The notes beneath the pieces were generated by a model that saw nothing but the letters and a program-made list of their open reading frames with translations, ran no database searches and was not told the origin of the DNA. This document shows, one piece after another, positions 10,608 through 25,859 of a stretch of DNA of 64,000 nucleotides. The translations under genes and the position numbers were made by a program. The stretch's first letter is position 1. Each line of letters starts with the position of its first letter. The stretch comes from Deinococcales bacterium (lineage in GTDB: Bacteria > Deinococcota > Deinococci > Deinococcales > JAAFIG01): assembly GCA_013298595.1 (NCBI GenBank), contig JAAFIG010000002.1, positions 78,781 to 142,780 on the forward strand. Direction: 5' to 3'.

Positions 10608-13469
10608 ATGACCGAAGTTTTAACTGGACTGGACTGGCAAATCAAAACCCTTCGCAGCCGTGTGATGAATAACCAACACAAAGTATTTGCAGTTGTTGGT
10701 GCAGATGGGCTGGGCAAGTCTTTTACGGTTCAAACCATGTTGCAGCAATTACCGTGGGCTGTGCTAAGTGTTCCAGCCACCGAATCACTAACGGCGCTTC
10801 TTGGGCGTTTAACGGTACTGAATCCCGAAGCAATTCAGTGGACTGCAGAGACCGTCAATACCCTCGAGTCTGGACAAGACTTACCGAACCATCAGGTTTT
10901 ACCGTTGCTACAAACCCAACTGATGGCATTAGCACCAATTGCAATTCATCTTGAAAATATTGAAAATGTGCAACCGTGGTTGGCTTTTATCAGAACCGCT
11001 CAATCAATTCGGGGAGTAACCGTTGTTGCCACCAGCCGTCATTCCTTACCAGCAGTATTCAGCGAAATCCGATTAGCTTATTTCAATCAATCACAAATTC
11101 AGGCTTTACTCGAGCAACATGGGTATGTACTACCTACTCAAGCCATCACATGGTTGTATGCTCGAGCCAACGGCAACCCTCGGTATACCCTCGAGTTTTG
11201 TTTGCAACTCTGCCAAATAGGGGCATTACGCAACGACGCTGGGCAATGGGTCTGGTCTGAACCTCAACAGATTATTGTGCCACTTGGTTTACAAAGCGAA
11301 ATGACTGAACAACTCGAGGTTTTGGTTGCTCAAGTCTCAGATCCGCAAAAAGCAAAAATGGTTTTATTAACCAGAGCCTTAGTTACCACCGAGGTATTAG
11401 CCAACCAATACTTACCTGCTTTTATTGGCATTCAAATACAAGCCGAACTGGAAAAAGTTACTCTCAAACAACAATTAGGCAATAAAAACGGATTTTACAA
11501 TCCTTTATTCAACGATTTACTCCGCCAAGATGTCTGGCAGACCGAACGGCGCTTAATTGCTCGGACTTTACTCGAGCCTGTTGGTGCAAAGCAACCTAAA
11601 GCAGCAATCCAATTGATACAAGCTGCACAACTCGAACCCAGTGCCGAATTAGCTGCTTGGCAACTGATTGCCGAACAAGCTATGCAATTACAAATGCTTA
11701 GTGTTGCAGGAGAATGCTATATCGCTGCTATGGAACTCTGCACAGGTACTTTACAAGCCGATTTTGCTTTAAAAGCCTCGAGATGCGTTCGTTTGTCCAA
11801 TCGAGCAAAATCGTTACAACTAATCAATCATGCCATGAGTATTGCACCAAATAACGAAACATACCAACTCGAGCGTTGCAAAGCCTTATTAGCTAACGGG
11901 CAACTTGAACCCTTACAAGCATTTTTACAAACCAAAGATCAGCAAAATCCCGCTTGGCTTGAATTACACTTACAAACCTTATTTCGGTCAGGTCAAGACC
12001 AAAAAGCCCTTGACTTATGGCAAGAAAACCTTTTGTTACAACCATTGTTATGTGAAACAACCCACCAACAAGTAGCAACAGGATTTTTACGAATGGGTCA
12101 ACAAAAACAGGCTTTTATAATTCTTGAACAAAAAAAATCAGTGGCTCGAGATGTCATCACAGCTGTTGGTTTGCGCCAAATCGGACAGTTAAATGCAGCA
12201 CTTACTTTGCTGAAACAAACCTTAGAAACCGATATGGCAAAATTACAACTCGAGTCTGTTTTACATCAAAGAGCTTTAGTACATCAGGAACTAGGTAATT
12301 TACCAGCAGCCATGCACGATGCCGAAAATGCGCTCGAGATTCTACAAATCTGTGGTGACGAATTTAGAATCGCTGCACGTAAAAACACCTTAGCTGGAAT
12401 CCTGATCGAACGAGCTGAATTTGTAATTGCTGAACAATTATTGCTCGAAGCCAGACGCATCATAGAGCATTTTGGATACTCACAACAATTGGTGTGTATC
12501 GAAAGAAATTTAGCTTGGCTATATCTCGAATGGCAACCAGAAATGGGTGGGGCTTTGGCGGTAAAACACGCCAGAAATGCTTTACGTCATGCCCGAACCA
12601 TATGTGGTGTCACAGAATTACATGAACACTTAGTTTTTATTGCCTGGGCAGAAGCTTTACATGGCAACCCCAAAACGGCTTTGCAACTCATACTCGAAAC
12701 ACCACGTTCAAGTGCCTTTAGTCAATGGGTGCATTTGCTTTGCTTAGAGAACACTGGTCAAAAAAATATGGCACAATTGTTTAAAACATGGCTGCGAGAC
12801 CAACCATACTCCACTCGCCGCACACGATTTGCTTTGGAATTACAACGACTGACCAAAACAACAAAAACATTACCCCACGAAATGACCGAAAACCCATTAA
12901 CTTTATTCATTGCAAAACGTTACTTTCCAACACTTAATCAAACAAATCTAACCGCAAATACACATAAACTCGAGGTGCTAGGAACACTCAAAGTCAATGG
13001 CATTATTATGTCTGGCAGGTTGCGTCGAGCCAAAGACATTTTACTGTTACTACTAGAAGCTCGGATTATGGGTAAACCCGAAGTCACACTCTTAGAATTA
13101 ATGGATGTCCTCTATCCAAACGAAGACGAAATACAAGCCTCGAGTGCAATTCGGCAACTGATTTACCGCTTGCGTAAAACATATGGTGATAATGTAATTA
13201 CACGTAGCTTACACGGATATTCACTAGGAATCCTTTCGGATGTCGAAGAATTCTTAGCAACAAACAACACCTTACTATGGCAAGGTTTATACCAATTTCG
13301 AGCAGATAGTGACTCGAGTGTCAGCACTGCCATTCATCAGCACTTAGAAAAGTGTATTGAGAATTTACGCCACCACAATCCCAGTGAAGCAGCTCGAGTG
13401 CAAAGATTTATCCCTCGAATGTATCTCAAAACAACTAAAAATACGGATTTACTTGTACTAGAAGCCTAA
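10608..13469 (+). CDS. Large AAA+ ATPase / TPR / C-terminal OmpR-type winged-helix transcriptional regulator (STAND/SARP-like)
   Basis: Walker A VVGADGLGKS. A long helical TPR-like middle region. The C-terminus has LEVLGTLKVNG...AKDILLLLLEARIMGKPEVTLLELMDVLYPNEDE..AIRQLIYRLRKTYG, a trans_reg_C-like wHTH. Confidence 0.75.
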   Translation: MTEVLTGLDWQIKTLRSRVMNNQHKVFAVVGADGLGKSFTVQTMLQQLPWAVLSVPATESLTALLGRLTVLNPEAIQWTAETVNTLESGQDLPNHQVLPLLQTQLMALAPIAIHLENIENVQPWLAFIRTAQSIRGVTVVATSRHSLPAVFSEIRLAYFNQSQIQALLEQHGYVLPTQAITWLYARANGNPRYTLEFCLQLCQIGALRNDAGQWVWSEPQQIIVPLGLQSEMTEQLEVLVAQVSDPQKAKMVLLTRALVTTEVLANQYLPAFIGIQIQAELEKVTLKQQLGNKNGFYNPLFNDLLRQDVWQTERRLIARTLLEPVGAKQPKAAIQLIQAAQLEPSAELAAWQLIAEQAMQLQMLSVAGECYIAAMELCTGTLQADFALKASRCVRLSNRAKSLQLINHAMSIAPNNETYQLERCKALLANGQLEPLQAFLQTKDQQNPAWLELHLQTLFRSGQDQKALDLWQENLLLQPLLCETTHQQVATGFLRMGQQKQAFIILEQKKSVARDVITAVGLRQIGQLNAALTLLKQTLETDMAKLQLESVLHQRALVHQELGNLPAAMHDAENALEILQICGDEFRIAARKNTLAGILIERAEFVIAEQLLLEARRIIEHFGYSQQLVCIERNLAWLYLEWQPEMGGALAVKHARNALRHARTICGVTELHEHLVFIAWAEALHGNPKTALQLILETPRSSAFSQWVHLLCLENTGQKNMAQLFKTWLRDQPYSTRRTRFALELQRLTKTTKTLPHEMTENPLTLFIAKRYFPTLNQTNLTANTHKLEVLGTLKVNGIIMSGRLRRAKDILLLLLEARIMGKPEVTLLELMDVLYPNEDEIQASSAIRQLIYRLRKTYGDNVITRSLHGYSLGILSDVEEFLATNNTLLWQGLYQFRADSDSSVSTAIHQHLEKCIENLRHHNPSEAARVQRFIPRMYLKTTKNTDLLVLEA

Positions 13470-13543
13470 AATATATACCACTTCGCAAAACTATTTCACT
13501 TAAAACTCGAATCAAGTCTATTAAACCTGACGGAGCGTTGAGT

Positions 13544-14239
13544 ATGAAAATCCGCATATCATACCGAGATATCCATGAGCAATATCATACTGAATTACCC
13601 CTCGAGCAATTACCAGTAATTGAACAACTACGATGGATACGACAAGAATGGTCACACAGTAAGCAAAACCACACCCCGTTAATGTTTTATTTCTCGAGCT
13701 TAAAACGATTAGTCTACTGTGAAAGCTATTTAGAAGCACAAACACTGCTGGATCTCGATTTTCGAGGTGAAACAAATTGTATCGTTGAACAACCATTTAT
13801 CTTACATTACAACAAGAAATTTCATATCCCCGATTATGTTCTACGGCAAGGTTTTACAACCATATTGATCAATGTTAAACCAAAAAAATTTCTTGAAACT
13901 CCAGAGAATATTACTGATTTTGCATTGGCATCTGAAGCAGCGCGGCAATTGGGCTGGATGTACCAAACTGTATCAGAATGCAATCCACAATATCTCGAAA
14001 ATATCAATTGGTTAGGTTCATTTAAGCACAGACCGTTTCAAGTTGAAACTTATGAAGTTGAGATTCTGAAGTATCTGAACCAATCATCAACGCTGCTCGA
14101 GTTGCTTAAACATTTCAAAAACGATTTCATCGTAAAACCAATAGTTTTCTATTTACTGTGGCATCGGCGTATTCAAACCAGTTTAGATCAGCGATTCTCA
14201 TTGCAAATGCCGTTATGGAAATCAACGGAGTATTCATGA
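13544..14239 (+). CDS. tnsA: TnsA-like endonuclease
   Basis: GGAG RBS. Restriction-endonuclease-like motif series CESYLE ... HIPDYVL ... ILINVKP (compare Tn7 TnsA E63/D114/Q130-x-K132). First gene of the tns operon. Its stop overlaps the tnsB ATG (ATGA). Confidence 0.75.
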   Translation: MKIRISYRDIHEQYHTELPLEQLPVIEQLRWIRQEWSHSKQNHTPLMFYFSSLKRLVYCESYLEAQTLLDLDFRGETNCIVEQPFILHYNKKFHIPDYVLRQGFTTILINVKPKKFLETPENITDFALASEAARQLGWMYQTVSECNPQYLENINWLGSFKHRPFQVETYEVEILKYLNQSSTLLELLKHFKNDFIVKPIVFYLLWHRRIQTSLDQRFSLQMPLWKSTEYS

Positions 14240-16314
14240 ATAAGTGGAACTTAGAGATTAACAATCTATATTTATGGTGTGATGAACACGTCAAACTAAT
14301 GCGATTTGTCAATCAACAAGTAATCCTCGAACGTGAAAATGGTCAAGTCATAACTATGAAGACTTCTGAATTCGTCAGTAAATATCCTATACCAGTCAAT
14401 GCTGATCCCTCCTTGATCATACAGCCAACGCCATCAATTTTTGACAATATCTCTAAATCAGCTCTTAAACAAGTTGACGTATTACAAGCTCACCTCGAGA
14501 TTGCAATTCACGGTATCGAACCAATGAATGAAAGTGAAACATGCTACGATGCAGAGTTAACCACGTTAACGTGTCGGATGAAAAAAAAGGCAGAAGAACT
14601 GAAAATGGATTTAAGCTCTTTCTGGCGAAAGAAAAAAAAGTATGAGCGATTTGGGCGATATGGTTTAATAGATCGTCGTTCATTACCGCTAGCACGCAGT
14701 AAACGCAATGATTCAGACCCAGTAGTCTTAACAATTGAAAAAGTACTGAAACAAACTATTGGTGCTTCTGATGTAACGAATATAATTCTATATAGAAAAA
14801 TCAAGAAACTATTGATACAAGACTATGGTGATACAGTCTCATTGCCATCGGTTGCGACGCTAAACAGATTATTAGCAGAAATAAGGCATCGATTAGGGAT
14901 ATATGGTAATGCTAATCAGCGTCAAAAATCTGCGCTAACACCTAAAAAACTATTTGGTTCTTTTCGTTCTACACACCCAGGGCAACTGGTAATGTTCGAT
15001 AGTACAAAACTTGATATGTTTGCACTCGACCCAATGAATAACGATTGGATTCAAGTTGCTTTGACTATTGCCTTTGATTTTTATTCTCGTTCAATTATTG
15101 GCTGGCGGTTCACACCTGTAGATACTAAAGGAGTAGATGCAGCTTTAGTTTTGTTTGATGTATTACATCCAAAAATTGCAATGCCAGATTGGGCAGATAT
15201 TGCTCATTGGAATTATTTTGGAGTACCAAGTGATATTCGCATTATTGAATACACCAATGATGATTCAAGCATACAGATTGCAGCTGTGCCATTTGTACAA
15301 CCAGATACAGTACTAATCGATCATGGCAAGGTTTTTATCTCGCATACATTTCAAGATGTTTGCACAAGACTTGGTATTCATATTCAACGAGCGCGTATCC
15401 GTCGTCCAACGGATAAATCGCCAGTAGAGAATGTATTTAAGCATATATCTCAGGATTTTTGTCAGCGATTGCCTGGATATAAAGGGCGCAGTATTGCTAC
15501 TAGAGGCATAGACATTGAAAAGAAAGCTTTTTATTACATTGAAGAAATCGATACGCTTTTTGCTGAATGGGTTGCGACTAAGTGGCAAAATCACATACCA
15601 AGATCGTTGCATTATCCTGCATCAGGAGCCGTTGAAGCTGATGTAACCCCTAATGATGCTTATACATTAGGTTTAACCCAAACTGGTTTTATACCGATAC
15701 CAAATCTGGTTTACTTCGATTGTCTTGAGACCGAATACCGTATTGTTAGTGAAAGTGGAATTACCATTCAATACCTTGAGTATGACAGTATTGAACTCGA
15801 GCCATTTCGTAATTATCCATCCGAGATTAGATCAGGCATTCATAAAGGAGATTATAGGATCAAAGCTGACCCACGAGACCGTAGTCAAATTTTTTTCTTC
15901 GATGAAATCCGCAAAACATGGATCACTATTCCGTGGCGTGGAAAACAGCATTTTTCACATCCATTTAGCGATCTAACACTTGCTTTTGCAAAAGCAACAG
16001 CCATTGAACATTTACATGGAAAAAAACCAACTAATGACGAAATTCGTTTTGCTTTGGAGGAAATGTATTCGCGTTGGGAGGCGAAAGAGTTTAGAACTCG
16101 CCGAGAGCGTCGTGTTGCTGCTCGAGATAAAATCCTAACCCAGCAAGCCCAAAAAGATCGTCTGCAAAAAAGTAAATCTACAGCATTAAATACTATTCCA
16201 GCAGCTGAGTTGAATCAATCAAATCAACCAATGATTCCAGAAGATATTAACGGTATTTTCAAGCGTTTTGACCAAATTAAAAGCTTGTATCAGGAGGATG
16301 ATGATGAGTTCTAA
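14236..16314 (+). CDS. tnsB: TnsB-like DDE transposase
   Basis: rve-type DDE triad context (LVMFDSTKLD, TVLIDHGKVF, DKSPVENVFKH). About 690 aa, with a Mu/Tn7-type architecture and an acidic C-terminal tail (YQEDDDEF). Confidence 0.85.
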   Translation: MNKWNLEINNLYLWCDEHVKLMRFVNQQVILERENGQVITMKTSEFVSKYPIPVNADPSLIIQPTPSIFDNISKSALKQVDVLQAHLEIAIHGIEPMNESETCYDAELTTLTCRMKKKAEELKMDLSSFWRKKKKYERFGRYGLIDRRSLPLARSKRNDSDPVVLTIEKVLKQTIGASDVTNIILYRKIKKLLIQDYGDTVSLPSVATLNRLLAEIRHRLGIYGNANQRQKSALTPKKLFGSFRSTHPGQLVMFDSTKLDMFALDPMNNDWIQVALTIAFDFYSRSIIGWRFTPVDTKGVDAALVLFDVLHPKIAMPDWADIAHWNYFGVPSDIRIIEYTNDDSSIQIAAVPFVQPDTVLIDHGKVFISHTFQDVCTRLGIHIQRARIRRPTDKSPVENVFKHISQDFCQRLPGYKGRSIATRGIDIEKKAFYYIEEIDTLFAEWVATKWQNHIPRSLHYPASGAVEADVTPNDAYTLGLTQTGFIPIPNLVYFDCLETEYRIVSESGITIQYLEYDSIELEPFRNYPSEIRSGIHKGDYRIKADPRDRSQIFFFDEIRKTWITIPWRGKQHFSHPFSDLTLAFAKATAIEHLHGKKPTNDEIRFALEEMYSRWEAKEFRTRRERRVAARDKILTQQAQKDRLQKSKSTALNTIPAAELNQSNQPMIPEDINGIFKRFDQIKSLYQEDDDEF

Positions 16315-17464
16315 ACCTAACTTGGAAGGTTTTGGCAACAATGAAACTGAAATGTATTTAGAAGAAGCTCCTATTTCGGAAATCAACAATTTTGATGAAT
16401 GGCTTCATTTTGTTTACGAACCAATATCAATTCGTCCCGATGTACCTACGCCCATAGAGTTTGCCGAAATGAGTCAAAAACAGAAAAAAAATTCGTGTAC
16501 ATTGCGTTTTCAGCATATTGCACGATTTCAACCGATTTCTACGACATCACGGAATAAAATCATTGATACCTTACTGCAGAGACTTCATGTGAACCGTATT
16601 GGAGGTCGTGGTGCTCGAGGAAGCGCTGTATTAACGGGCTACCCTTACATTGGAAAAACAACAATAGCTGTGGATATTGGCAGACGCTATGATCTTGATA
16701 TGCGGAAACTTCTCAAAAAGAGAACAGGTCAAGAACTTTTTATTCCAGAAACAAATGATCGCTTTATCCCTGTAATTTATGTGTGTTTAAGCAGCGAAGA
16801 TGTCTCCAACCTGAAAGCGTTGTATGCAACTTTTGCTCGATTCTTAGGTATACCAAAATATGAAAAAAAGACAACCAAACAACTCGAAGATGCTGTTGTT
16901 AAATGGGCGAAAGCTTGTCAAACAAGTTTTATCATCGTAGACGAAATTCATTATATTGATATTCGTTCGCGTGGTGTACGAAAAACCAATAATGCTATTA
17001 AAACACTGATGAATCGAATTCCTGCCACATTTTTATTCGCTGGGATTGAGTGTGAAAACACAGGAATCTTTTTTGACCATGACAGTGATCAAAAACGTAA
17101 AGCTGACCCAAGATTAGCGCAATTAAATCATCGCTGCTTAAAACTCGAACTAAAACCGTTTCAAAGTCTTTATGGTAATTATCAAGAAGGTATCAAACTT
17201 ATCAATACAATTGACCAAGAAATCGTACTAGTGAATCATCAAACAGGCGATTTGGTTCAACTAGCACCTTATATTCTAGCTAGAACAAATGGTCATATTG
17301 GAAGTATTCGGGATTTTATTTCACTAGGGTGTTATAAGGCTTTAAAAGAGAAAACCGAACGTCTCACCAAAGAGATATTAGAAGAAATTCAGCTTGATAA
17401 CGCGGCTGAAACAGCTTATCAAAATTATTTGGCAAGCAATCCACCCGCCCTCGAGACATACTAA
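16298..17464 (+). CDS. tnsC: TnsC/TniB-like AAA+ ATPase
   Basis: AGGAGG RBS inside the tnsB 3' end. Walker A GYPYIGKTT and Walker B FIIVDEIHY. Confidence 0.85.
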   Translation: MMMSSKPNLEGFGNNETEMYLEEAPISEINNFDEWLHFVYEPISIRPDVPTPIEFAEMSQKQKKNSCTLRFQHIARFQPISTTSRNKIIDTLLQRLHVNRIGGRGARGSAVLTGYPYIGKTTIAVDIGRRYDLDMRKLLKKRTGQELFIPETNDRFIPVIYVCLSSEDVSNLKALYATFARFLGIPKYEKKTTKQLEDAVVKWAKACQTSFIIVDEIHYIDIRSRGVRKTNNAIKTLMNRIPATFLFAGIECENTGIFFDHDSDQKRKADPRLAQLNHRCLKLELKPFQSLYGNYQEGIKLINTIDQEIVLVNHQTGDLVQLAPYILARTNGHIGSIRDFISLGCYKALKEKTERLTKEILEEIQLDNAAETAYQNYLASNPPALETY

Positions 17465-17477
17465 GCCTACGAGTCTT

Positions 17478-18626
17478 ATGAATAATCAACATCATCCACT
17501 CAACCGCCAATTTCCAAAGCGTGCCAATCTTAAAGCTGGTAATGCGTTGATTCCCCAATTGATCGAACTGGCTCGAGATTTGGAAATTACAACAGAAGAC
17601 TTATCAGCATTTCTCGAGGTCAGATTTGGGTTGGTACAAACAGCATTTGATCGTTTGCCATTCTTGACAACTCGAGAAATGGAGCAACTAGCACATGAGT
17701 TCGGCGTTTCAGTGCAAACGATAGAAGAAACCACCGCAGCCTATTTCTCGAGCAGAATTGGTACATCTCAGGATTCTGAACTACAGGAGCTTTTAGTTCC
17801 CTTTACCAAACGTCTTAAAGTATGCCCAAAGTGCCTACAAGAAAAACAAAACTACCAACTATCTTGGCAAGTTTCGTGGTCTTTTGTCTGTACTCGACAT
17901 CACGTTTTGCTCCAAGATATTTGTCCACACTGTGAGTATCCAATCGCTTCTAAACGTCGCACAACAGGCATTCCTGTTGAACATTTCCGCTGCGGTAATC
18001 ACATTGTCAACCAAAGTGTTTGCCATGAACGACTGGATCAACTTCCTCGAGTCTCTGTGGCAAACTACCCCGCAATTCTGAAAGCCCAAAATATTCTTGA
18101 AGCTGTTATCAATGGTAAATCGGTTTTGATATTTAACCAAACGGTTGTTCCGAAAGTGTTCTTGCAGAATTGTATTGCACTTCTTAAAATTCTTTGGGGA
18201 TTTATTGTGCCAGAACAGTTAGCCTCGGCTCCAATCAAATGCACAGGTGCATACCATCAATTTACCCGCGCTCGAGAAAAATATTTTCAATACCTCGAGC
18301 AGGAAAATCCGCTCGAGGACTCACCTGCTGCTATTTCTAGGCTTTGGGGAACACTTGATTTGATGACTGGCACAATGCCTTTGGTTTTAGAGATTCTTGC
18401 TTTATCCTCGAGACAAGCTATGGTGAATAGACTGATTGCCCTGATACAACAAAGCTGTTATCAAAGACCCCAATACCCACTTTGGATTTTGCAACACTTT
18501 GAACGACAAGCCATTGAAAATCACCATTGGATGTACACAATTAAGGAGTTGCAAAATTGGCTTAGAAGGACGTACTTTTTAAGAAAGGAGGTAGTGGCGC
18601 ATGTACCAAACCCTTATCCACTTTAA
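17478..18626 (+). CDS. tniQ: TniQ-family target-selection protein
   Basis: TniQ zinc-ribbon pattern CPKCLQEK...VCTRHHVLLQDICPHCEYPI. At 382 aa it is small-TniQ sized, like Cascade-associated TniQ. Its 3' end overlaps cas6 by 26 nt. Confidence 0.8.
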   Translation: MNNQHHPLNRQFPKRANLKAGNALIPQLIELARDLEITTEDLSAFLEVRFGLVQTAFDRLPFLTTREMEQLAHEFGVSVQTIEETTAAYFSSRIGTSQDSELQELLVPFTKRLKVCPKCLQEKQNYQLSWQVSWSFVCTRHHVLLQDICPHCEYPIASKRRTTGIPVEHFRCGNHIVNQSVCHERLDQLPRVSVANYPAILKAQNILEAVINGKSVLIFNQTVVPKVFLQNCIALLKILWGFIVPEQLASAPIKCTGAYHQFTRAREKYFQYLEQENPLEDSPAAISRLWGTLDLMTGTMPLVLEILALSSRQAMVNRLIALIQQSCYQRPQYPLWILQHFERQAIENHHWMYTIKELQNWLRRTYFLRKEVVAHVPNPYPL

Positions 18627-19173
18627 TCCTTCCTCTCCTCATGCTCAACGATTGCTAGACCAACCTTACCGAATCCACTACATGCTCGAGCATATTAATA
18701 CAAGTAGAACGCGAATATTATGGCGTTTAAGCGAAGATCGATTGCTAGTTAGGCATATTAACCCTCTTGACTGGACTGAACTTGATAAAACGCATCCAAG
18801 CCTTGGAGATAGAAGTCATACACAGGTGAACTTAGATTTGCCTTTGGGAACAATTCACCTGTTCAACTTGTTCGCGTTTATTTGTAAGCCAGATGACAAC
18901 GGAAAATGGAAAGTACAACAACCCAAACAGTATATTGATTGGCTTATTAAGCGTTCCAAACACATTGGTTTTGAATTACGTGAGATCCAAATCAACAAAG
19001 CCCCTGATCACTTTGTCCGAATGAACAGCGCTCAAATTAGAGCGCAGCCAATGAAGGTATCTGGAATTTTACAAATTACAGATACAACTGCCTTAATACA
19101 TAGTTTGGAAAGTGGAATAGGAAGGATGCGTGCTTATGGTTGTGGAATGTTAATATTGCAACCAATTGGATAA
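18601..19173 (+). CDS. cas6: Cas6e (CasE)-like crRNA endoribonuclease
   Basis: N-terminus MYQTLIHF...PYRIHYML (CasE has MYLSKV...LYQLHQGLW). C-terminus SGILQITDTTALIHSLESGIGRMRAYGCGMLILQP, against E. coli CasE EGVLTINDAPALIDLVQQGIGPAKSMGCGLLSLAP. Confidence 0.85.
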   Translation: MYQTLIHFNPSSPHAQRLLDQPYRIHYMLEHINTSRTRILWRLSEDRLLVRHINPLDWTELDKTHPSLGDRSHTQVNLDLPLGTIHLFNLFAFICKPDDNGKWKVQQPKQYIDWLIKRSKHIGFELREIQINKAPDHFVRMNSAQIRAQPMKVSGILQITDTTALIHSLESGIGRMRAYGCGMLILQPIG

Positions 19174-19193: not shown

Positions 19194-19218
19194 AGTGAAG
19201 TTTTGTCTGTTTCAAGCC

Positions 19219-19600
19219 GTTCTGCCCTCACGTGTAGGGGTCATCCGTAATTGCTGTAGTTGAAGTAAGAATTCTTGTAGTTCTTTCCTTACGTGTAGGG
19301 GTCATCCGCGAAACAGCTCTACAAAAACCATTGTTCCGCGTTCTTCTCTCACGCGTAGGGGTCATTCGGCGACGAACAGGTTTGATTTTCCAGATTCTTG
19401 AGTTCTTCCTTCATGTGTAGGGGTCATCCAATGTGAATAGAGTCATTGCACATATGTTACCGCGTTCTTCCCTCATGTATAGGGATCATCCGAAAGGAGT
19501 TGTGGAACGCCAAACCTCTTTCGGTGTTCTTCCCTCACGCGTATGGGTTATTCGGCTGCATCTAGCATCGTGTATTTCTCTCACGTATAGGGATCATCCA
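19219..19600 (+). CRISPR. CRISPR array, 7 x 29-bp type I-E-like repeats, 6 spacers (32, 31, 33, 33, 33, 17 bp)
   Basis: R1 GTTCTGCCCTCACGTGTAGGGGTCATCCG (19219). R2 GTTCTTTCCTTACGTGTAGGGGTCATCCG (19280). R3 GTTCTTCTCTCACGCGTAGGGGTCATTCG (19340). R4 GTTCTTCCTTCATGTGTAGGGGTCATCCA (19402). R5 GTTCTTCCCTCATGTATAGGGATCATCCG (19464). R6 GTTCTTCCCTCACGCGTATGGGTTATTCG (19526). R7 GTATTTCTCTCACGTATAGGGATCATCCA (19572). Confidence 0.9.
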
Positions 19601-19673
19601 GCACAAACACGAGTTCAAGTTTCATTGGGTACTTTTCTTTTCGTGAGAATCACTCTCTTCTAAGGTCTACAAC

Positions 19674-20858
19674 ATGAATCTACTATTTGATGCTTGGATT
19701 CCAACAACAAATTCACTTCAATCCCTTGTTTCAGTTCTTGAGAATGCAAATTCTTTGCAGCTTTTTTCTCGAGGAACTCAATTTGCTTCTATTTTGCGGT
19801 TGCTGCTGGCGATTTGTTATCAAAGTGGTGAAACCAGTCAAACATTAATACGAAATGGCATTAGTAATAAAACATTTAAGCATCTCGAGCAGTACAAAAA
19901 CGCTTTTGATCTTCATCATGGTTTTTTGACTTGCCCAGACCTTGATGCCGATTTGAGCACCATGGCAAAATTGATTCCGTTGTTACCTTCGGGCAATACC
20001 ATCGTTTTTTTTAATCATGCTCGAGATGATCAATTTCCCATTGTTTCTAGCGACGAACTAGCTCGTTATGTCCTTGATTATCATGCTTTTGCTGCCGCAG
20101 GAGGTCAAAGTGTAACTGGTTATCGTGGGCTTAGCCCTTGTGTTGATGTGGTTCTTGGGATAGCAATTGGAGAAACTCTACTCGAGACACTCGCCCTTAA
20201 TTTAGTACCTGATTCGCGTCTGCAAAGCGCAAGCTGGACACTTTCTCGAGTCACTAAACAAGATTTTCAAGATAATAGACGGCAGACAGCTGGAAGTCTC
20301 GCAGGGCAGTATTCATGGCTTGGGCAAGCAGTTCGGTTATTTGAGCATGGTGTTGGTACAGCCAAAGGCTTTAAATTACGCTTTGACTCTGACCCGATGA
20401 TGAGCAAAAAGATTGATCGAAATGGTCAACTAATAAGCTTTGTGCGTCCAGAGTCATTTGAGCCTATTCTTTTAGCTGCTCGACTGATGGGTTTGCAGTC
20501 TATTTGTGCAGCAACTTTTTCACATGCACAAAGTTTGGATATTCCTTTCCAGTGGCGAGTCATTTCGCAAGTCAGTTCTCCAACCCACAAAGTCAAAGTG
20601 CTTGAAACGATTGATTCGGTGTATTCACCACAAACCCTAGACCTTCAAACATTAGCTCGAGTTCTTGCCATTCGAGGCGAATTGGTAAAACACCAGTCTG
20701 AATTTGTGGCTCGAGCTTTTGTGTCTACTTTTGAGGATTTTTTAAGACTTAACCAAACTATTGAACTTGATTCGTTTGTAGAACAATACCCTTTTCAAAC
20801 GGATAATAAATTACTGGGGATACTTCGCAAATTAACTCGGAAGGCAATAGGTGAATAA
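19674..20858 (+). CDS. cas8: Cas8e (Cse1/CasA)-like large subunit, shortened (394 aa)
   Basis: N-terminus MNLLFDAWIPTT, against E. coli Cse1 MNLLIDNWIPVR. It sits immediately upstream of cas7 (3-nt gap). Confidence 0.7.
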   Translation: MNLLFDAWIPTTNSLQSLVSVLENANSLQLFSRGTQFASILRLLLAICYQSGETSQTLIRNGISNKTFKHLEQYKNAFDLHHGFLTCPDLDADLSTMAKLIPLLPSGNTIVFFNHARDDQFPIVSSDELARYVLDYHAFAAAGGQSVTGYRGLSPCVDVVLGIAIGETLLETLALNLVPDSRLQSASWTLSRVTKQDFQDNRRQTAGSLAGQYSWLGQAVRLFEHGVGTAKGFKLRFDSDPMMSKKIDRNGQLISFVRPESFEPILLAARLMGLQSICAATFSHAQSLDIPFQWRVISQVSSPTHKVKVLETIDSVYSPQTLDLQTLARVLAIRGELVKHQSEFVARAFVSTFEDFLRLNQTIELDSFVEQYPFQTDNKLLGILRKLTRKAIGE

Positions 20859-20861
20859 TTT

Positions 20862-22085
20862 ATGCTCATTGAAATCCACTGTATTCAATCGGTCCCTATA
20901 TCTCACTTGAATTCTGATAGAAATGGTCAACCCAAGACAGTCATGTACGGCGGTGTTCTTCGTGCCCGAATCTCGAGTCAAGCTCAAAAACGCAGTTTAA
21001 GGCTCTTTATTCATGAGCATGGGCTTTTAGATGTGCTGGATTTCGCGTATCGAACAAGGCGTTTTACGCAACTGGCTGCTGAAAAACTTGAAAAATTAGG
21101 TATACAGCAAACAGAAGCCCTAAATTTGGCAGTTCGTTCGATGGCTGCCCTCAAGCTTGGGCATAAAGAAAAAGCTAATGAGGATGACCCTGTACTGAAC
21201 GAATTCTTGATCTTTTTTTCAGAGTCAGAATTACAAGCGTTTGCCAATACAATTTATGAGCATCAGTCTGTAATCTCGAGAATCAACATGGATGTCCATA
21301 AAGAACTCGATGCTATAGACGCAGTTGAAGGCGAGAAGAAAAAACAAAAATCCAGTAAGTTGACCAAGGCTGAAATCAAATCGGCAATCAAAAAAGAATT
21401 CCCACTTGAGGTGATTAAAGCCCTACAAAACCCCTTTATTGAAACTCGTTCTCTTGAAATGAATTTATTGGGGCGGCAACTCACCAACTTTCCTGATGGT
21501 ACAGTAGATGGGCAAGTTCAAGTCGCCCATGCTTTTTCCGTGGATGAAAGTCGTACCACACAAGACTTCTTTACTGCTGTTGATGATTATGCCTTTAAGG
21601 GCATGACAAAAGTAGGTATGCTTGAAGAGATTGGCTTCAATGCACCAACACTATATCGTGTGGCTGCGGTTAACGTCTCTCAGCTTGCTGAAGCTTCTGG
21701 CGATCTTGCCGCTGCCAAACGCGGGGCTGCCGCTTTTTTAGAGGCATTTGTGTCCACATTAGCGCACGGTGGGCAAAACTCTTTTCTCAGCCTTACTGTT
21801 CCGAGTTTTGTATTGATCCAAATCGTTGATAAAGGTCATGCTTTATCGTATGCCCCAGCGTTTCTTAAACCTGTCCAAAGCAGCAAAGAGTTCAGCACTG
21901 CTGAGGCTGCTATTGTGCAGTTATCCCGATACATTGAATACCAAGAGGCTGCTTTTCCTCGATTTAAGCGTTCACACAAAGTATTTTTTAGTCAAACAGA
22001 TCAAGATTTCAAAGGTGCTAAACGAGTCATCGGAATTGACCAAGCAATCAAATTTATTCTAGGCAAAATCGGGGATGAAAAGTGA
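20862..22085 (+). CDS. cas7: Cas7e (CasC)-like backbone subunit
   Basis: IHCIQSVPISHLNSDRNGQPKTVMYGGVLRARISSQAQKRSLR, against CasC [50 protein letters not shown]...VDGQVQVAHAFSV....QDFFTAVDD, against LSGRMAT...VDGAMSIAHAITT....IDWFTAVDD. Confidence 0.85.
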   Translation: MLIEIHCIQSVPISHLNSDRNGQPKTVMYGGVLRARISSQAQKRSLRLFIHEHGLLDVLDFAYRTRRFTQLAAEKLEKLGIQQTEALNLAVRSMAALKLGHKEKANEDDPVLNEFLIFFSESELQAFANTIYEHQSVISRINMDVHKELDAIDAVEGEKKKQKSSKLTKAEIKSAIKKEFPLEVIKALQNPFIETRSLEMNLLGRQLTNFPDGTVDGQVQVAHAFSVDESRTTQDFFTAVDDYAFKGMTKVGMLEEIGFNAPTLYRVAAVNVSQLAEASGDLAAAKRGAAAFLEAFVSTLAHGGQNSFLSLTVPSFVLIQIVDKGHALSYAPAFLKPVQSSKEFSTAEAAIVQLSRYIEYQEAAFPRFKRSHKVFFSQTDQDFKGAKRVIGIDQAIKFILGKIGDEK

Positions 22086-22573
22086 AACAGGTTCGTCTTT
22101 GTTTGGAAGGTCTACTGCAAGCATGGGGCGTGGATAATGCGCTTCAGCGTCGCCGTACTCATAACCAACCGCAACGACGAACCGTTTTTGGATTGATTCG
22201 GGCTGCAAAAGGACTCAAACGACATGAATCTTGGGAAGCTCTCGAGACACTTGATTTCAAGTGTGAAATCCATAAAGCTGGGTATCGAATGTGGGATTTT
22301 GCTTCTATGTCTAATATTATTCGTGCCAATGGTGAAGGCATTCAAGACCAAGCTATTCAAGAAAAAGAGTATCTGGTTGATGCAGCATTCATAGTCACCC
22401 TAACAGGCAAAGATCAACTCATTGATGAAGTCATTGCCGCTCTCGAGGATCCTGTTTTCCTTTTAGGGCTTGGAAGGCGCGATTGTATGCCAACACAACC
22501 AATTTTGTCGAATTATGATGTTGAGATTGATTTAGTCAAAATGTCAAAGAAAGCCAAAACGTACACCATATAG
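22082..22573 (+). CDS. cas5: Cas5e (CasD)-like subunit, shortened (163 aa)
   Basis: GTG start overlapping the cas7 stop (GTGA). LCLEGLLQAWG...PQRRTVFGLIRAAKGL, KEYLVDAAFIVTL and LGLGRRDCMPTQP, against CasD LRLAGPMQAWG...PTRSGLLGLLGACLGI, REYLCDASFTVAL and YLGRRSCPLTHP. Confidence 0.8.
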   Translation: MKQVRLCLEGLLQAWGVDNALQRRRTHNQPQRRTVFGLIRAAKGLKRHESWEALETLDFKCEIHKAGYRMWDFASMSNIIRANGEGIQDQAIQEKEYLVDAAFIVTLTGKDQLIDEVIAALEDPVFLLGLGRRDCMPTQPILSNYDVEIDLVKMSKKAKTYTI

Positions 22574-22875: not shown

Positions 22876-23166
22876 CTAACCACTACTGCTTTTTCGAGGT
22901 CGTTTATTGCTTGGGAATGGCATTACCAGTTCTTTTGCACTTGGCAAAGCTAATAGCTTTGCAATTGGTATCTGGAGCTGAGTGGATACTTGCATGATTG
23001 TCTCGAGGGAGGGATTGGTGCGTTTGGCATTTTCAGACTCAAGTATTTGGTATGTTCGCAAGGGTAAACCAATCAATTCGGATGCTTCTTCTTGGGATAA
23101 GCCTTTTTTTAACCGAGCTTTACGAATTCGGAGTCGAAAAGCTCGGAGGAAAGCAGCGTCAAACAC
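22876..23166 (-). CDS. XRE-family helix-turn-helix regulator
   Basis: LRIRKARLKKGLSQEEASELIGLPLRTYQILESE is a typical HTH_3 motif. It is divergent from the 23408 operon. Confidence 0.8.
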   Translation of the reverse strand: MFDAAFLRAFRLRIRKARLKKGLSQEEASELIGLPLRTYQILESENAKRTNPSLETIMQVSTQLQIPIAKLLALPSAKELVMPFPSNKRPRKSSSG

Positions 23167-23407
23167 AATGCTATGCTGCTCATTTTTATGGTATTTTGTA
23201 ACGATTCAAATTATGTCATAAAATAATCTGAGTTAAAATCTTGATTTGTCCCCAAGCACACAAATATGTTACAGTCCTTAAACCAAGCCAAACACATCAC
23301 CCAGATGTACAGGCAAAAGCTTTCCCAAAAGGTTCGCAACAGCTTCGCCCCTTCCAACGGGCAACAACCGAAGCTGTTGTTTTTATTTTCCCAAGGAGAC
23401 AAGCTCA

Positions 23408-23992
23408 ATGCCAAACACTCTCGAGACCAACAACCCCGATTATGAAGTACAAATCAACCAGCAATACCATGCTTTTCTGGTCTGTAACGTCTTCATTAAC
23501 GATTCTGGACGTGGTAAACAAGTACAAATCATCATCGAAGGTAAAGCTTACAAAGCTGTTGTCAGTGTTGAAGCATTACGTGTATCACCAAATTTAACTG
23601 GTCAATGGCGAGCTACTTTGCACATTCGTTGTAAACCCGATGGCACACTAGACAAAACCATGTCCCTAAGACGAATTCGGGCATTAAGCCCACAAACTAC
23701 TGATCAACCTGCTTTCTGGGCTTGTACAGGTGATGTTACCAGTATTGATGTAAAAACAGGCTTACTCAAAGTTCGTATTTATCCTGGTAGACGCAAAGCC
23801 AGTGTTTTTTCCTTATTCGTTCAAGCCAGTCCTATTGTGCTCGAGCAAATTTCCCAAGCGAAATTTGTGCATCTAACAGGAACACTCGAAAAGCATTCAT
23901 TGGTTGTGCAACATTTTGAACCTCGAGATAGTGTTGATGCTGTCTTACAGGGTTTGAATGAGATTGAATCTGACAGGAGCAGTCATAAATGA
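23408..23992 (+). CDS. Hypothetical protein, paralogue A of a duplicated pair
   Basis: Shares an ordered motif series with the next gene: YH.F(L/F)V, G.WRATL, FW...G.V, (V/I)R(I/V)YP, (F/Y)VH(L/M)TG..E...L.(V/A)Q..EP. No family recognised. Confidence 0.6.
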   Translation: MPNTLETNNPDYEVQINQQYHAFLVCNVFINDSGRGKQVQIIIEGKAYKAVVSVEALRVSPNLTGQWRATLHIRCKPDGTLDKTMSLRRIRALSPQTTDQPAFWACTGDVTSIDVKTGLLKVRIYPGRRKASVFSLFVQASPIVLEQISQAKFVHLTGTLEKHSLVVQHFEPRDSVDAVLQGLNEIESDRSSHK

Positions 23993-24705
23993 AATCTAAT
24001 ACAGTAGAAACACCAGTACTTCAATCCTTAGTAACTATCCCTGTTCTCAAGCCAAAAGGTTTGAACATCGCATATCAACATCATTTCTTTGTCCAAACCA
24101 ATATCACCATCAGAGACACCAGTCAAGCAACTCGAGTCTGGTTAGACCTAGACTCTGATAATGGTTCATTCCTAGCTCGAGTGCATTCTAAAGTCTTTGC
24201 ACAATGGCAAAAATCACATCCAGAGCAAAGCTCGGTCAATCTTTCTGGTGTATGGCGAGCCACTTTGTATGGTCAAACAATGCCAAATCAGTCCCTCAAG
24301 TCCTTACAGATAATTCGATTAACTCCTCTCGAGAATGCCATTGATCTGAATGGACAAAGTACCTTCTGGAGTGCAGCAGGTAAAGTCCTACGCTTAGACC
24401 GAGCTGAACGCATTGTAATCATTCGGGTGTACCCAAGAACCAAAGGGTTTGAACCATTTGTGATCAGTGCTAAAACCACCCTCGAGTTACTGAACCTAGT
24501 TCAAGATGCCTGGTATGTGCATATGACAGGTGTAGTTGAACAAGGGTACTTAATTGCTCAGAACCTCGAGCCAATGCGTTTAGATATTCCAAGCGTGTGG
24601 AAAGACTGGATTCCACCAAGTAAACGCAAAGTCATACTCGAGAATACCTTAAACAGTGAATCCAGTGACTCTTCATTGGATGCTGGTACAAATCTTGGAT
24701 TTTAA
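23989..24705 (+). CDS. Hypothetical protein, paralogue B of a duplicated pair
   Basis: ATGA overlap with the preceding gene, and the same motif series as 23408..23992. Confidence 0.6.
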   Translation: MKSNTVETPVLQSLVTIPVLKPKGLNIAYQHHFFVQTNITIRDTSQATRVWLDLDSDNGSFLARVHSKVFAQWQKSHPEQSSVNLSGVWRATLYGQTMPNQSLKSLQIIRLTPLENAIDLNGQSTFWSAAGKVLRLDRAERIVIIRVYPRTKGFEPFVISAKTTLELLNLVQDAWYVHMTGVVEQGYLIAQNLEPMRLDIPSVWKDWIPPSKRKVILENTLNSESSDSSLDAGTNLGF

Positions 24706-24710
24706 GGGGT

Positions 24711-25187
24711 ATGAGAATGAAACAAGCCTTAGTTTATCTTCAAGTCTTACAAAGTATCTTTGTTGTGGTTAATCGAATAAATACTCGAGCTAATGCAGTA
24801 ATGAACGTAGTGCACGTGGCATGGGAATTTTACTTAGCTATGCCAACACAAGATTTAGCGTTAGACGTGATTCATTTAGTGACGGTGCAAACAAGGAATT
24901 ATCGACAGGTGACCTATGGTATTTCAGTGCAAGAAATGAATCTAAATGTAGTAGAAAAACACTCAGTCGAATTTGCAAGGGATCTCGAAGAAGCGCTACT
25001 GACTTGTGTAACTCTTTTTGAATCTGACCAAGCTACTTCTGGTTTACGGCAAGTTAAAAGAAAGATCAAAATGAGTTTCGTGCTTAATGAACAATGCCAA
25101 TGGACTTTTAAGCACGCTTCTCAGCAAAGTAAAAGTGATTTATTACAAATTCTTGAATTTAGCATCAACCCCAAGGTTATCAAATGA
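24711..25187 (+). CDS. Hypothetical protein (158 aa)
   Basis: 6-nt gap after the preceding gene, and its stop overlaps the next ATG (ATGA). No motifs recognised. Confidence 0.5.
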   Translation: MRMKQALVYLQVLQSIFVVVNRINTRANAVMNVVHVAWEFYLAMPTQDLALDVIHLVTVQTRNYRQVTYGISVQEMNLNVVEKHSVEFARDLEEALLTCVTLFESDQATSGLRQVKRKIKMSFVLNEQCQWTFKHASQQSKSDLLQILEFSINPKVIK

Positions 25188-25516
25188 TGCGTGGTAAACC
25201 TGCTTACACATCGGAATTCAAACTCCGTATGGTTAAAGAAGTACTCGAGCAAGGTAAAAGACCCAGTGCCGTAGCTCGAGAACATAAGATTCTGGCTTCC
25301 ACATTGTTTTCTTGGCGGGCTTTGTATGAACGGTTCGGTGAAGCTGCGTTTACAATGGTTGAGCAAAGCAGTTTACTTGAGGTGGAGAACATCAATTTGC
25401 AAAAGCAACTCGAGCGATTAAAATCTCAGGAGATCGTTTTTGAGCGGTTACTGGGCAAAATGACGCTCGAGAATCATCGGTTGCGAGAACAATTAAGTCT
25501 GCGCCTATCTGTGTAA
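25184..25516 (+). CDS. IS3-family OrfA-like HTH/coiled-coil protein (no OrfB follows)
   Basis: YTSEFKLRMVKEVLEQGKRPSAVAREHKILASTLFSWRALYERFGE is the classic IS3/IS911 OrfA HTH_Tnp_1 pattern, followed by a leucine-zipper-like tail. No DDE OrfB or IS inverted repeats are visible downstream. Confidence 0.7.
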   Translation: MMRGKPAYTSEFKLRMVKEVLEQGKRPSAVAREHKILASTLFSWRALYERFGEAAFTMVEQSSLLEVENINLQKQLERLKSQEIVFERLLGKMTLENHRLREQLSLRLSV

Positions 25517-25630
25517 CAGTACAAATACCACAGCTCCAAAAGATAGCAATTGTTACTTTAGTAACAGTAAATAGGAGGAAGTTATAACATTTGGGTGAAT
25601 TAGGAGACTACGTCAAATACAGTATTTAGG
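25513..25630. repeat. Three spaced ACAGTA-AATA motifs (candidate TnsB-binding sites, right end)
   Basis: GTAACAGTACAAATAC (25513), TAGTAACAGTAAAT (25559) and CAAATACAGTATTTAGG (25614). The reverse complement of the second (ATTTACTGTTACTA) matches ATTTACTTGTACTA at 13447-13460 in 12 of 14 positions. Confidence 0.35.
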
Positions 25631-25644
25631 CAACTCTTACATAA

Positions 25645-25803
25645 TTTGATTCAAATCACTCTTATATGCAATGATTTGTGATGAATATACATTGTGTTTA
25701 ACGTAGATGGCAGTTACAGATTAAATGATTTTCTATAATGTTATAGAAAATCATTTGATCTGCAACTAAATCACTGTATATAAGAGTGACTTGAGAGTAA
25801 ATC
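25645..25803. repeat. Long imperfect palindrome (inner 22-bp arms, outer arms with an ~35-bp asymmetric insert)
   Basis: Inner arms: CAGATTAAATGATTTTCTATAA (25717-25738), tg, TTATAGAAAATCATTTGATCTG (25741-25762), with 1 mismatch. Outer arms: TCACTCTTATAT (25656-25667) against ATATAAGAGTGA (25778-25789). Confidence 0.8.
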
Positions 25804-25823
25804 AAGCTACTTGAGAGTAAAAC
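25789..25823. repeat. Tandem 20-bp-period direct repeat at the candidate right terminus
   Basis: ACTTGAGAGTAAATC (25789-25803) and ACTTGAGAGTAAAAC (25809-25823). Read on the other strand, the terminus is TGTTTTACTCTCAAGT followed by TGATTTACTCTCAAGT. Confidence 0.6.
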
Positions 25824-25859
25824 AAAGTTAAAACTACCATTTCCTTTGCCATCAATCTC

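Follow-up and report, generated by a model that had tools for sequence, protein, structure and literature searches.

A Tn7-like TnsABC-TniQ transposon with a reduced type I-E Cascade: a candidate CRISPR-associated transposon family in Deinococcales

A 64-kb stretch of DNA from a Deinococcales bacterium (64,000 nt, below called the window) carries a Tn7-like transposon that appears to have captured a CRISPR (clusters of regularly interspaced short palindromic repeats) effector of type I-E. From its gene content and sequence, the locus would be a member of a family of CRISPR-associated transposons (CASTs) in which a core of TnsA, TnsB and TnsC (TnsABC) with one tniQ has taken up a reduced I-E effector. 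The original prediction, made from the letters of this stretch, had already proposed a Tn7-like transposon with a type I-E Cascade. Conserved synteny and homing spacers in relatives bear out the combination; the Cascade itself is not a full one, as cse2/cas11 is missing. The central reading, a Tn7-like TnsABC-TniQ joined to a Cas3-less, Cas1/2-less type I-E Cascade, is supported, and it is strengthened by that synteny and by self-targeting spacers found next to AAG at a fixed distance from the element. We consider it likely that the family performs RNA-guided transposition through TniQ.

Eight tightly packed genes on the plus strand, from tnsA to cas5, occupy window positions 13544-22573, and the CRISPR array lies between cas6 and cas8 (Table 1). 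The open reading frames (ORFs) of tnsA-tnsB-tnsC-tniQ-cas6, array and cas8-cas7-cas5, together with their overlaps, are as originally described. The tnsC frame opens with ATG at 16298 and is also open from an alternative TTG start at 16268. The family alignment shows conservation of TnsA residues E60/E64, of D97 and of the VK motif; among nine members the E, D and K are invariant or nearly so. The K132 region aligns to Tn7 TnsA. TnsB aligns with ShCAST TnsB (3e-8) with all three DDE residues in register, and with PseCAST TnsB at 3.5e-7. The TnsC translation contains a Walker A motif, GYPYIGKTT, and a Walker B motif, IIVDEIH; TnsC has no sequence match in the PDB. TniQ keeps its zinc-finger cysteines and histidines, and this region aligns to PDB TniQ.1 at 4e-4. 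The DDE, PD-(D/E)xK and Walker motifs of the window copy are intact, and the earlier statement that TnsA is present and that the DDE and Walker motifs look whole agrees with the NF033179 match, the ShCAST alignment, the family alignment and the translated motifs. Cas6 aligns to Thermus thermophilus Cse3, and a histidine near its N terminus (YRIHYML in the query, YEMHRTL in Cse3) sits where the catalytic histidine of Cse3 is expected.

All four Cas proteins are of type I-E, and Pfam, NCBIfam, PDB sequence comparison and fold are concordant on this. Among subtype-specific models, the Cascade proteins matched only those of I-E and not those of I-F, I-B or I-D. In the PDB sequence search the best relatives of all four are subunits of I-E Cascade (Cas8 with CasA, 1.4e-14; Cas7 with Thermobifida fusca Cse4, 2.7e-41; Cas5 with CasD, 4e-18). 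An AlphaFold2 (AF2) model of Cas8, built from 13 family sequences, has a mean predicted local distance difference test (pLDDT) score of 83 and a predicted template modelling (pTM) score of 0.88. A Foldseek search of the PDB with this model gave 15 significant hits (E<=0.001), and all of them are large subunits of type I-E Cascade (Cse1/CasA, the Cas5-HNH variant included). The top hit is T. thermophilus CasA (1e-17, TM 0.68), and the first hit beyond the 15 has E = 0.57. The model keeps the N-terminal domain and a short C-terminal helical bundle; with 394 residues the protein is ~100 aa shorter than the solved Cse1 proteins (about 470-510 aa). The type I-E identity proposed earlier is therefore borne out by hidden Markov models, PDB sequences and AF2/Foldseek alike, and no assignment to I-F3, I-B or I-D was obtained.

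The effector would be a reduced I-E Cascade of Cas6e, Cas8e, Cas7e and Cas5e, with cse2/cas11 missing in the clade of the window. There is no room for a separate Cse2/Cas11 gene, since only 3 nt lie between cas8 and cas7, and the window Cas8 terminates where the Cse2 domain of fused relatives starts. Among relatives, Cse2/Cas11 is a separate gene of 141-144 aa in contigs L091 (6416-6850) and L094 (16607-17032), where the PF09485 match is weak (E = 0.0024 or faint), and it is fused to the C terminus of Cas8 in L096 (6343-8007) and related proteins. These three states in one transposon family (separate gene, Cas8 fusion and absence) appear to show a stepwise loss. As originally stated, cas3, cas1 and cas2 are not found in the 64 kb, either by Pfam on ten of the largest ORFs or by tblastn. 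The tblastn search used all ORFs of 15 canonical I-E loci, one of which (L014) was confirmed as a control to hold cas3, cse1, cse2, cas1 and cas2, and it returned only cas6, cas7, cas5 and two unrelated host genes. Pfam and NCBIfam profile searches found no nuclease domain in the window Cas proteins.

The original prediction suggested looking for the same gene order elsewhere, and tnsA-tnsB-tnsC-tniQ-cas6-array-cas8-cas7-cas5 recurs in about ten further distinct contigs (L001/2, L003/4, L005/6, L007, L009, L010, L091, L093, L094 and L096). Across them, identity falls to 40% for Cas7 and spans 37-100% for TnsB, and those contigs that carry a title are metagenome-assembled genomes named 'Deinococcales bacterium'. 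The Cas7 clade of the family is small (37-100% identical to the query), and every readable contig in it (L001/2, L003/4, L005/6, L007, L009, L010 and L093) keeps the gene order; to other I-E Cas7 proteins the identity is 34% or less, mostly 28-33%. The family was widened by a TnsB search (to 37% identity) and by a Cas8 search, which added the Cse2-fused member. For additional members, a metagenome scan gave only canonical I-E Cas7 proteins (28-33%), a viral scan gave one canonical-like hit, and a first genome scan gave no match. Because the gene order recurs in distant relatives, the association of effector and transposon is taken to be old.

Outside the family, the closest relatives of TnsB lack cas genes and come with a long TnsD-like TniQ (L095 is 39% identical). 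TnsB proteins of actinobacterial plasmids are 28-32% identical and also lack cas genes nearby; an example is Rhodococcus pYLL1, in which a neighbouring gene is annotated 'TnsA-like heteromeric transposase endonuclease subunit'. An Actinobacteria-dominated, uncharacterised clade of Tn7-like elements has been described as clade 2 by Benler et al. (PMC8649781). Since its nearest TnsB relatives are cas-less with a TnsD-like TniQ, the transposon backbone is assigned to this actinobacterial-type clade and would not derive from the I-F3, I-B or V-K CAST backbones. On that assignment a Tn7-like transposon may have captured a CRISPR effector independently in this family.

The array of the window is the only one in the 64 kb. 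Its repeats are spaced 60-62 nt apart, and six of the seven lie within 3 mismatches of the consensus, where none is expected by chance. The seven 29-bp repeats of the original prediction are confirmed, while an eighth, atypical repeat and the 32-nt spacer in front of it (19601-19632) had been missed. The earlier spacer length of 31-33 bp holds in general, with the exception of a spacer of just 17 nt at 19555-19571, between repeats 6 and 7, which is probably a deletion scar inside the array. In the atypical repeat a hairpin is placed as in the typical repeats and is kept by compensatory changes (CCCUC/GGGG to UUCUU/GAGAA). Energies of the repeat hairpins are not different from those of shuffled sequences, so the evidence drawn from them is limited to where the hairpin lies and to its compensatory changes. 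Every relative examined has an equivalent atypical last repeat. The spacer that precedes it, here called the homing spacer, differs at one nucleotide from the terminal spacer of L001. No targets of the non-terminal spacers came up when viral contigs were scanned with every sixth base set to N.

The evidence for homing comes from the relatives. In all eight that have upstream flank (L001, L003, L007, L009, L010, L093, L094 and L096), the best match of the terminal spacer is a plus-strand site just upstream of tnsA. The mismatches out of 32 are, respectively, 5, 5, 10, 12, 8, 9, 6 and 9. Among 2000 shuffled spacers per locus none equalled the observed match, except for one in L009, and other spacers from the same arrays have 14-18 mismatches. 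The protospacer adjacent motif (PAM) is AAG in six of the eight. In seven loci the protospacer ends 49-58 nt before a conserved end block; the block is less clear in L096. The end block, TAGTGAAAATCATTTGA..TTGACA-17-TAnAnT, is conserved in L001, L003, L005, L009, L010 and L093, and we take it as the putative tnsA-proximal transposon end with an outward-facing-in promoter. L001, whose Cas7 is 89% identical to that of the window, lies directly downstream of tRNA-Gln and tRNA-Glu(CTC). Its spacer matches the 3' half of tRNA-Glu (L001 1695-1726, right after AAG and 58 nt upstream of the end). The homing targets are conserved host genes: this tRNA-Glu, a PIG-L gene and a lactamase_B gene, each at its first codons, and an SLBB gene at its last codons. 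L005 and L093 share one insertion site. The order PAM, protospacer, ~50 bp and tnsA-side end is the geometry of type I CASTs. A terminal spacer directed at the site of its own element, with constant spacing to the end, is a signature of RNA-guided homing, as judged from these alignments.

The mismatches are not evenly spread over the guide. When pooled (64 mismatches), 28 fall at guide positions 6, 12, 18, 24 and 30 (expected share 16%, p = 8.5e-8), and only 6 of the 64 fall in the seed (p = 0.007). Positions 6, 12, 18, 24 and 30 are the bases flipped out by I-E Cascade. In L003, L007, L009, L010, L093, L094 and L096 the mismatches lie on codon wobble positions, phased 3n and hence including all 6n positions, on either strand of the target gene; the reading frame at the target was verified by hand for L003, L007 and L094. 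Such wobble phasing may reflect selection for guides that tolerate synonymous drift.

From these features a pathway can be proposed. The array in the cas6-cas8 interval would be transcribed on the plus strand, and Cas6e would cut every repeat hairpin to give CRISPR RNA (crRNA); the Cas6e histidine and the repeat hairpins are both present for this step. A complex of Cas8e, Cas5e, several copies of Cas7e and Cas6e would then bind DNA beside a 5'-AAG PAM and form an R-loop. TniQ is expected to dock on the PAM-distal, Cas6 end of Cascade, as the tniQ-cas6 overlap and the analogy with I-F3 and I-B CASTs suggest. It would nucleate TnsC, which would recruit TnsA and TnsB for cut-and-paste insertion about 50 bp past the protospacer with the tnsA end nearest the target. 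The last spacer with its atypical repeat would serve as a fixed guide to a conserved host gene, here tRNA-Glu(CTC), while the remaining spacers presumably direct the element into mobile DNA.

Several observations weigh against this interpretation, some for the family and some for the window copy. All steps after crRNA processing are proposed by analogy, and a Cas11-less I-E Cascade is not known to form stable R-loops. The homing spacers carry 5-12 mismatches, some of them beyond the tolerated positions, and in two relatives the PAM is not AAG (AGA in L007, AGC in L093). The enrichment of mismatches at every sixth base is confounded with codon wobble positions in the coding targets; as the 6n positions are also wobble sites, flipped-base and codon effects are not separable. 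In the window itself, the homing target is absent: there is no tRNA, an Rfam search of the window gave no hit, and the homing spacer has no match at <=10 mismatches. No other spacer matches the flank upstream of tnsA, or any site in the window, at that threshold. The tnsA-side end was not detected, either with an nhmmer profile of the end block or by local alignments, which were not above shuffles. We identified no target-site duplication, and the retrieved DNA of the relatives showed no left end. The window repeats differ mutually at 1-5 positions, where those of L003 and L004 are nearly identical among themselves; from this divergence the array appears to be decaying, and its truncated spacer counts on the same side.

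The original prediction had set the borders at TGT 13420 and ACA 25824, but only about 8-13 nt of weak similarity stand behind them and they are not adopted here. On the tnsA side, TAAAAATACGGATTTACTTGTAC in the 13436-13543 region shows a weak by-eye similarity, not above shuffles, to the family end block TAGTGAAAGGATTTTAACTTGAC. A search for inverted repeats over 12500-27500 gave no terminal pair. The PAM of the window copy would be AAG by comparison with L001. An AAG-flanked candidate site at 13353-13384 is matched by no spacer and could be due to chance. On the distal side, the block at 25642-25737 is the sole inverted left-end candidate and is found in the window only. Of its terminal nucleotides, 22/24 match in inverted orientation the adjacent copy at 25742-25830 (inverted repeats I1 and I2). 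This adjacent copy is 87% identical to L001 1785-1844, the L001 segment between the tRNA-Glu target and tnsA, and only a host epimerase gene comes after it. Together, 25642-25830 form a large imperfect palindrome in which the two end-block termini face each other 2-4 nt apart. Such an arrangement would be expected if an older tandem copy had occupied the same attachment site and was later lost, so that its solo right end now adjoins the left end of the present element; the solo block probably remains from this second, tandem element.

Compared with L001, the proteins become more similar from one end of the element to the other: identity is 58% for TnsA, 62% for TnsB, 75% for TnsC, 81% for TniQ, 83% for Cas6 and Cas8 and 89% for Cas7. 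Against L003 the window TnsA and TnsB are as conserved as the Cas proteins. The gradient between window 13544-17464 and L001 1925-5863 points to a possible module swap on the tnsA-tnsB side. The window copy is probably a recombinant of two family members, displaced or chimeric. The simplest account we infer is a crossover somewhere in tnsB-tnsC, which would have left the element with a foreign right end and position and with an L001-like array, left end and tandem remnant. This account would explain why the guide points at a site that is not there.

The strongest competing explanation takes this further. The family would be a real CAST, and the copy in the window an immobile fossil or chimera, in which recombination joined a foreign tnsA-tnsB and right end to an L001-like segment reaching from tnsC to the left end; the element would have moved off the tRNA-Glu site, and its ends would be unusable by its own TnsB. 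We rate this somewhat short of an even chance. The climb in identity to L001, with a flat L003 comparison, agrees with it, as do the left-end candidate and the solo end, which are 87-93% identical to the L001 end block while nothing similar lies upstream of tnsA. The homing spacer without a target in the window, the decayed repeats with one spacer of 17 nt, and the absence from the window of the genes that follow accessory gene o110 in L001 and L010 also fit. Yet none of the eight core ORFs is truncated, their catalytic motifs are intact, and the density of CTCGAG in the element is near that of the host (see below), which implies a long residence during which the ORFs were nevertheless kept. 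A diverged right end may simply escape detection, and insertion by a guide later lost, or supplied in trans, is equally possible. With all eight core genes intact, we give even chances that the window copy is still mobile; the decayed repeats and the 17-nt spacer are what make its mobility doubtful.

RNA-guided transposition by the family has further rivals, and these fare much worse. The Cas genes could be a nuclease-free interference or silencing cargo, as in type IV systems, used in competition among mobile elements rather than for target selection. The absence of Cas3, the lack of identified targets for non-terminal spacers, and arrays in L003 and L004 that differ by two leader-proximal spacers, as for an array used on changing targets, are compatible with such a role. 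It leaves unexplained why in 8/8 relatives the terminal spacer matches the place where its own element is inserted, with distance and orientation fixed, why tniQ and cas6 overlap, and why the cas genes keep their place within the tns operon region even where TnsB identity has dropped to 37%. We regard it as improbable. Less probable again is a mechanism like that of the Streptomyces I-E5 element, in which Cascade would recruit a Cas3 encoded elsewhere, with transposition or recombination following the break. The sole published I-E-associated transposon does use Cas3 (10.1101/2024.11.13.623437), the host may hold a canonical I-E system elsewhere, and the spacer turnover in L004 hints at Cas1-Cas2 in trans. 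TnsA and TniQ are present here and absent in I-E5, however, and protospacers are retained at a fixed distance here, whereas in I-E5 they are deleted and the distances vary. A homing guide against a tRNA or essential-type gene would be suicidal with Cas3, and Cas8 is shortened (394 aa) and Cas11 lost. An ordinary type I-E defence locus beside a Tn7-like transposon by chance, conceivable given how common I-E systems are and how often defence genes travel as cargo on Tn7-like elements (PMC8649781), is very improbable and already contradicted by the data: cas3, cas1 and cas2 are not found, the gene order is non-canonical (cas6 beside tniQ, array between cas6 and cas8), Cas7 forms a distinct clade (37-46% within the family, 34% or less to other I-E Cas7), synteny is kept among relatives, and the spacers point to the site of the element itself.

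Table 1. Features of the candidate CRISPR-associated transposon and its surroundings (window coordinates)
Feature	Position	Strand	Description
Possible degenerate tnsA-proximal (right) end and promoter region	13436..13543	+	low confidence
tnsA	13544..14239	+	231 aa, PD-(D/E)xK endonuclease subunit; NF033179 TnsA_like_Actin, 1.2e-33, above cutoff
tnsB	14236..16314	+	692 aa, DDE transposase; Pfam rve; ATGA overlap with tnsA
tnsC	16298..17464	+	AAA+ regulator; TniB 2.5e-11, AAA_22 5.9e-12; 17-nt overlap with tnsB
tniQ	17478..18626	+	382 aa, putative target-selector adaptor; PF06527, 1.4e-12
cas6e	18601..19173	+	190 aa; PF08798 1.7e-27; TIGR01907 1e-13, above cutoff; 26-nt overlap with tniQ
CRISPR array	19219..19600	+	seven 29-nt repeats, consensus GTTCTTCCCTCACGTGTAGGGGTCATCCG; six spacers, 31-33 nt except one
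Terminal 'homing' spacer	19601..19632	+	32 nt, GCACAAACACGAGTTCAAGTTTCATTGGGTAC; 1 nt different from L001 terminal spacer
Atypical terminal (eighth) repeat	about 19630..19661	+	about GTACTTTTCTTTTCGTGAGAATCACTCTC
cas8e (Cse1)	19674..20858	+	394 aa, compact form; PF09481, 1e-25
cas7e	20862..22085	+	407 aa; TIGR01869 8e-57, above cutoff; 3-nt gap after cas8
cas5e	22082..22573	+	163 aa, short; TIGR01868 2e-21, above cutoff; GTGA overlap with cas7
Xre-type helix-turn-helix (HTH) gene	22876..23166	-	HTH_3 1.3e-9; divergent, beside cas5
Accessory o194	23408..23992	+	all-beta; no Pfam family
Accessory o238	23989..24705	+	o194 paralog, all-beta; no Pfam or NCBIfam hit
Accessory o158	24711..25187	+	no Pfam family
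Accessory o110	25184..25516	+	HTH_Tnp_1 protein, IS3/IS66-type
Candidate distal (left) end	25642..25737	-	inverted end-block copy; nhmmer end profile 8.6e-6
Solo tnsA-proximal end block	25742..25830	+	end profile E = 1e-19; no element genes behind

Among known systems the I-F3 CASTs (Tn6677/VchCAST and PseCAST) are close in organization; some of their features are taken from PMC8649781. They too have TnsA, TnsB, TnsC and a single TniQ of about 380-430 aa, a Cascade without Cas3 and Cas1/2, a short array that ends in a homing spacer, flanked by an atypical repeat and aimed at a conserved gene of the chromosome, insertion ~50 bp past the PAM-distal end with the tnsA (right) end nearest the target, and an Xre-type regulator nearby. 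They differ in the effector, which is Cas8f/5f, Cas7f and Cas6f there and Cse1, Cas7e, Cas5e and Cas6e here, and in the PAM, which is CC there and AAG here, where the repeats are 29 nt long. The backbone is of actinobacterial type here, TnsB matching PseCAST TnsB only at 3.5e-7, and cas6 stands ahead of the array and cas8. The type I-B and I-D CASTs of cyanobacteria (PMC9881144) likewise combine a Tn7-like TnsABC and TniQ with a type I Cascade, and some show guide-directed or tRNA-adjacent homing, but Cascade subtype, transposon clade and host phylum are different. Their Cas11 is made from within cas8 or cas10d and is absent here; I-B1 has an additional TnsD, while only one TniQ is present here. 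Work on these cyanobacterial I-B and I-D systems was reportedly also published by Saito et al. in 2021.

Canonical I-E systems (Escherichia coli, T. thermophilus and T. fusca) share homologous Cse1, Cas7e, Cas5e and Cas6e with the window locus, as well as 29-nt hairpin repeats, ~32-nt spacers, the AAG PAM and tolerance of mismatches at every sixth base. Here cas3, cas1, cas2 and cse2 are missing, the gene order is rearranged, Cas8 is shorter, Cas5 is short and Cas7 is about 28-33% identical. The actinobacterial-type Tn7-like elements, represented by Rhodococcus pYLL1, have an NF033179 TnsA, a TnsB of 28-39% identity and the order tnsA-tnsB-tnsC-tniQ in common with the window element; they have a TniQ/TnsD of 600-780 aa and no cas genes, in contrast to the 382-aa TniQ, Cascade and array found here.

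The original prediction knew of no characterised I-E-derived CAST. An 'I-E CAST' has in fact been published by Hsieh et al. (10.1101/2024.11.13.623437, Science 2025) and is listed as I-E5 in PMC12669027, although its architecture is a different one. It is a telomeric TnsBC element of Streptomyces that keeps Cas3 and is without TnsA and TniQ (10.1101/2024.11.13.623437). As in the window, a I-E Cascade operon is merged there with tnsB-tnsC-type genes and cas1-cas2 are absent; the window element, too, has an actinobacterial-type backbone. In I-E5, Cas3 is active (HD domain) and TnsA/TniQ are lacking, and the reverse is true here. I-E5 is telomeric and one-ended, and the model proposed for it depends on a Cas3 break; the window element lies in a chromosomal region with rpoB and rpoC; protospacers are destroyed and lie at no fixed distance there, and the relatives of the window element home at a fixed distance.

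Rybarski et al. (10.1101/2021.08.16.456562) described Rpn-associated I-E Cascades, which are not Tn7-like. The papers PMC10293859 (Faure 2023), PMC8649781 (Benler 2021), PMC10910872 (Altae-Tran 2023) and PMC9881144 (Hsieh & Peters 2022) do not mention a Tn7-like I-E CAST with TniQ. A 2024 review (PMC11656645) counts I-E among the subtypes captured by Tn7-like transposons, from the same earlier sources. A full-text literature search, with most subscription papers outside its scope, found no TnsABC-TniQ element with a I-E Cascade. The architecture has probably not been described before. It seems to us a reasonably good bet that the family, as an actinobacterial-type TnsABC-TniQ with a Cas11- and Cas3-less I-E Cascade, an AAG PAM and terminal-guide homing, is functional and at the same time unpublished.

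The array region of relatives shows two further features. L003 and L004 encode an identical Cas7, and their arrays (L003 8406-8691, L004 1900-2306) differ by two extra spacers on the cas6 (leader) side. This suggests ongoing gain or loss of spacers although cas1-cas2 are not linked; leader-proximal gain without an own Cas1-Cas2 would imply adaptation in trans by host I-E systems. In L001 (7640-8540), an insertion sequence (DDE_Tnp_1 and DUF4096) sits in the first repeat of the CRISPR array.

Next to cas5, the divergent Xre-type HTH gene occurs in the same position in L001, L006 and L096. The accessory module that follows it (23408..25516) was found by tblastn in L001, L006, L009, L010 and L011; the Xre and accessory region lies at 11699-13589 in L001, 12274-14390 in L010, 9690-10762 in L006 and 9745-10044 in L096. 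Compared with L010, o238 is 63% and o110 78% identical, above Cas7 at 40%. The o238 family has 39 representatives among 1.84 billion proteins, and its AF2 model is poor (pLDDT 51). In L007 (11980-21197), cas5 is followed by two DncV-like nucleotidyltransferases, an E2/ThiF protein (resembling a cyclic oligonucleotide-based antiphage signalling system, CBASS) and an SLFN/AlbA_2 protein. Defence genes of this kind are typical cargo of Tn7-like elements.

The locus is flanked by 13 kb and 38 kb of ordinary chromosomal genes, rpoB and rpoC among them, and ten of the largest ORFs of the window are genes of this sort (rpoB and rpoC, glycosidases, a sugar kinase and RCC1-repeat proteins among them). 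Three RCC1-repeat proteins (402-2255, 7153-8940 and 9010-10560) lie directly upstream of the element, and a 153-nt tandem repeat spans 7870-8193. After these proteins comes a 953-aa one (10608-13469) resembling AAA/tetratricopeptide-repeat regulators, the last codons of which abut the region just upstream of tnsA. By far the most over-represented hexamer of the window is CTCGAG, with 298 copies where 11.8 are expected (25-fold). All three codon frames contain it (74/40/24), and its density is 3.6 per kb within the element and 4.9 per kb outside it. L001, L003, L005, L007, L009, L010, L091 and L094 show the same excess, at 44% and 60% GC. It can be likened to the cyanobacterial HIP1 palindrome, and no literature on a CTCGAG excess was found.

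To our knowledge, no natural systems other than CASTs can place large DNA at programmable sites without making double-strand breaks. Independently evolved CAST types have each given different engineering properties, and type I-E is the biochemically and structurally best-understood Cascade. The described CASTs do not combine this Cascade subtype, this transposon clade and this degree of Cascade reduction. If the interpretation is true, a TniQ-coupled I-E Cascade that reads the canonical AAG PAM and needs only four Cas proteins, Cas11 not among them, would offer a compact scaffold with good precedent. We know of no characterised member of the actinobacterial-type clade with a Tn7-like RNA-guided pathway, and the family would add, in this clade, one more independent recruitment of CRISPR by Tn7-like elements. 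Its contrast with I-E5 is that the same Cascade subtype is joined there to a Cas3-dependent route. The phasing of mismatches with wobble sites and with the unpaired sixth positions suggests how homing guides may survive the drift of their targets.

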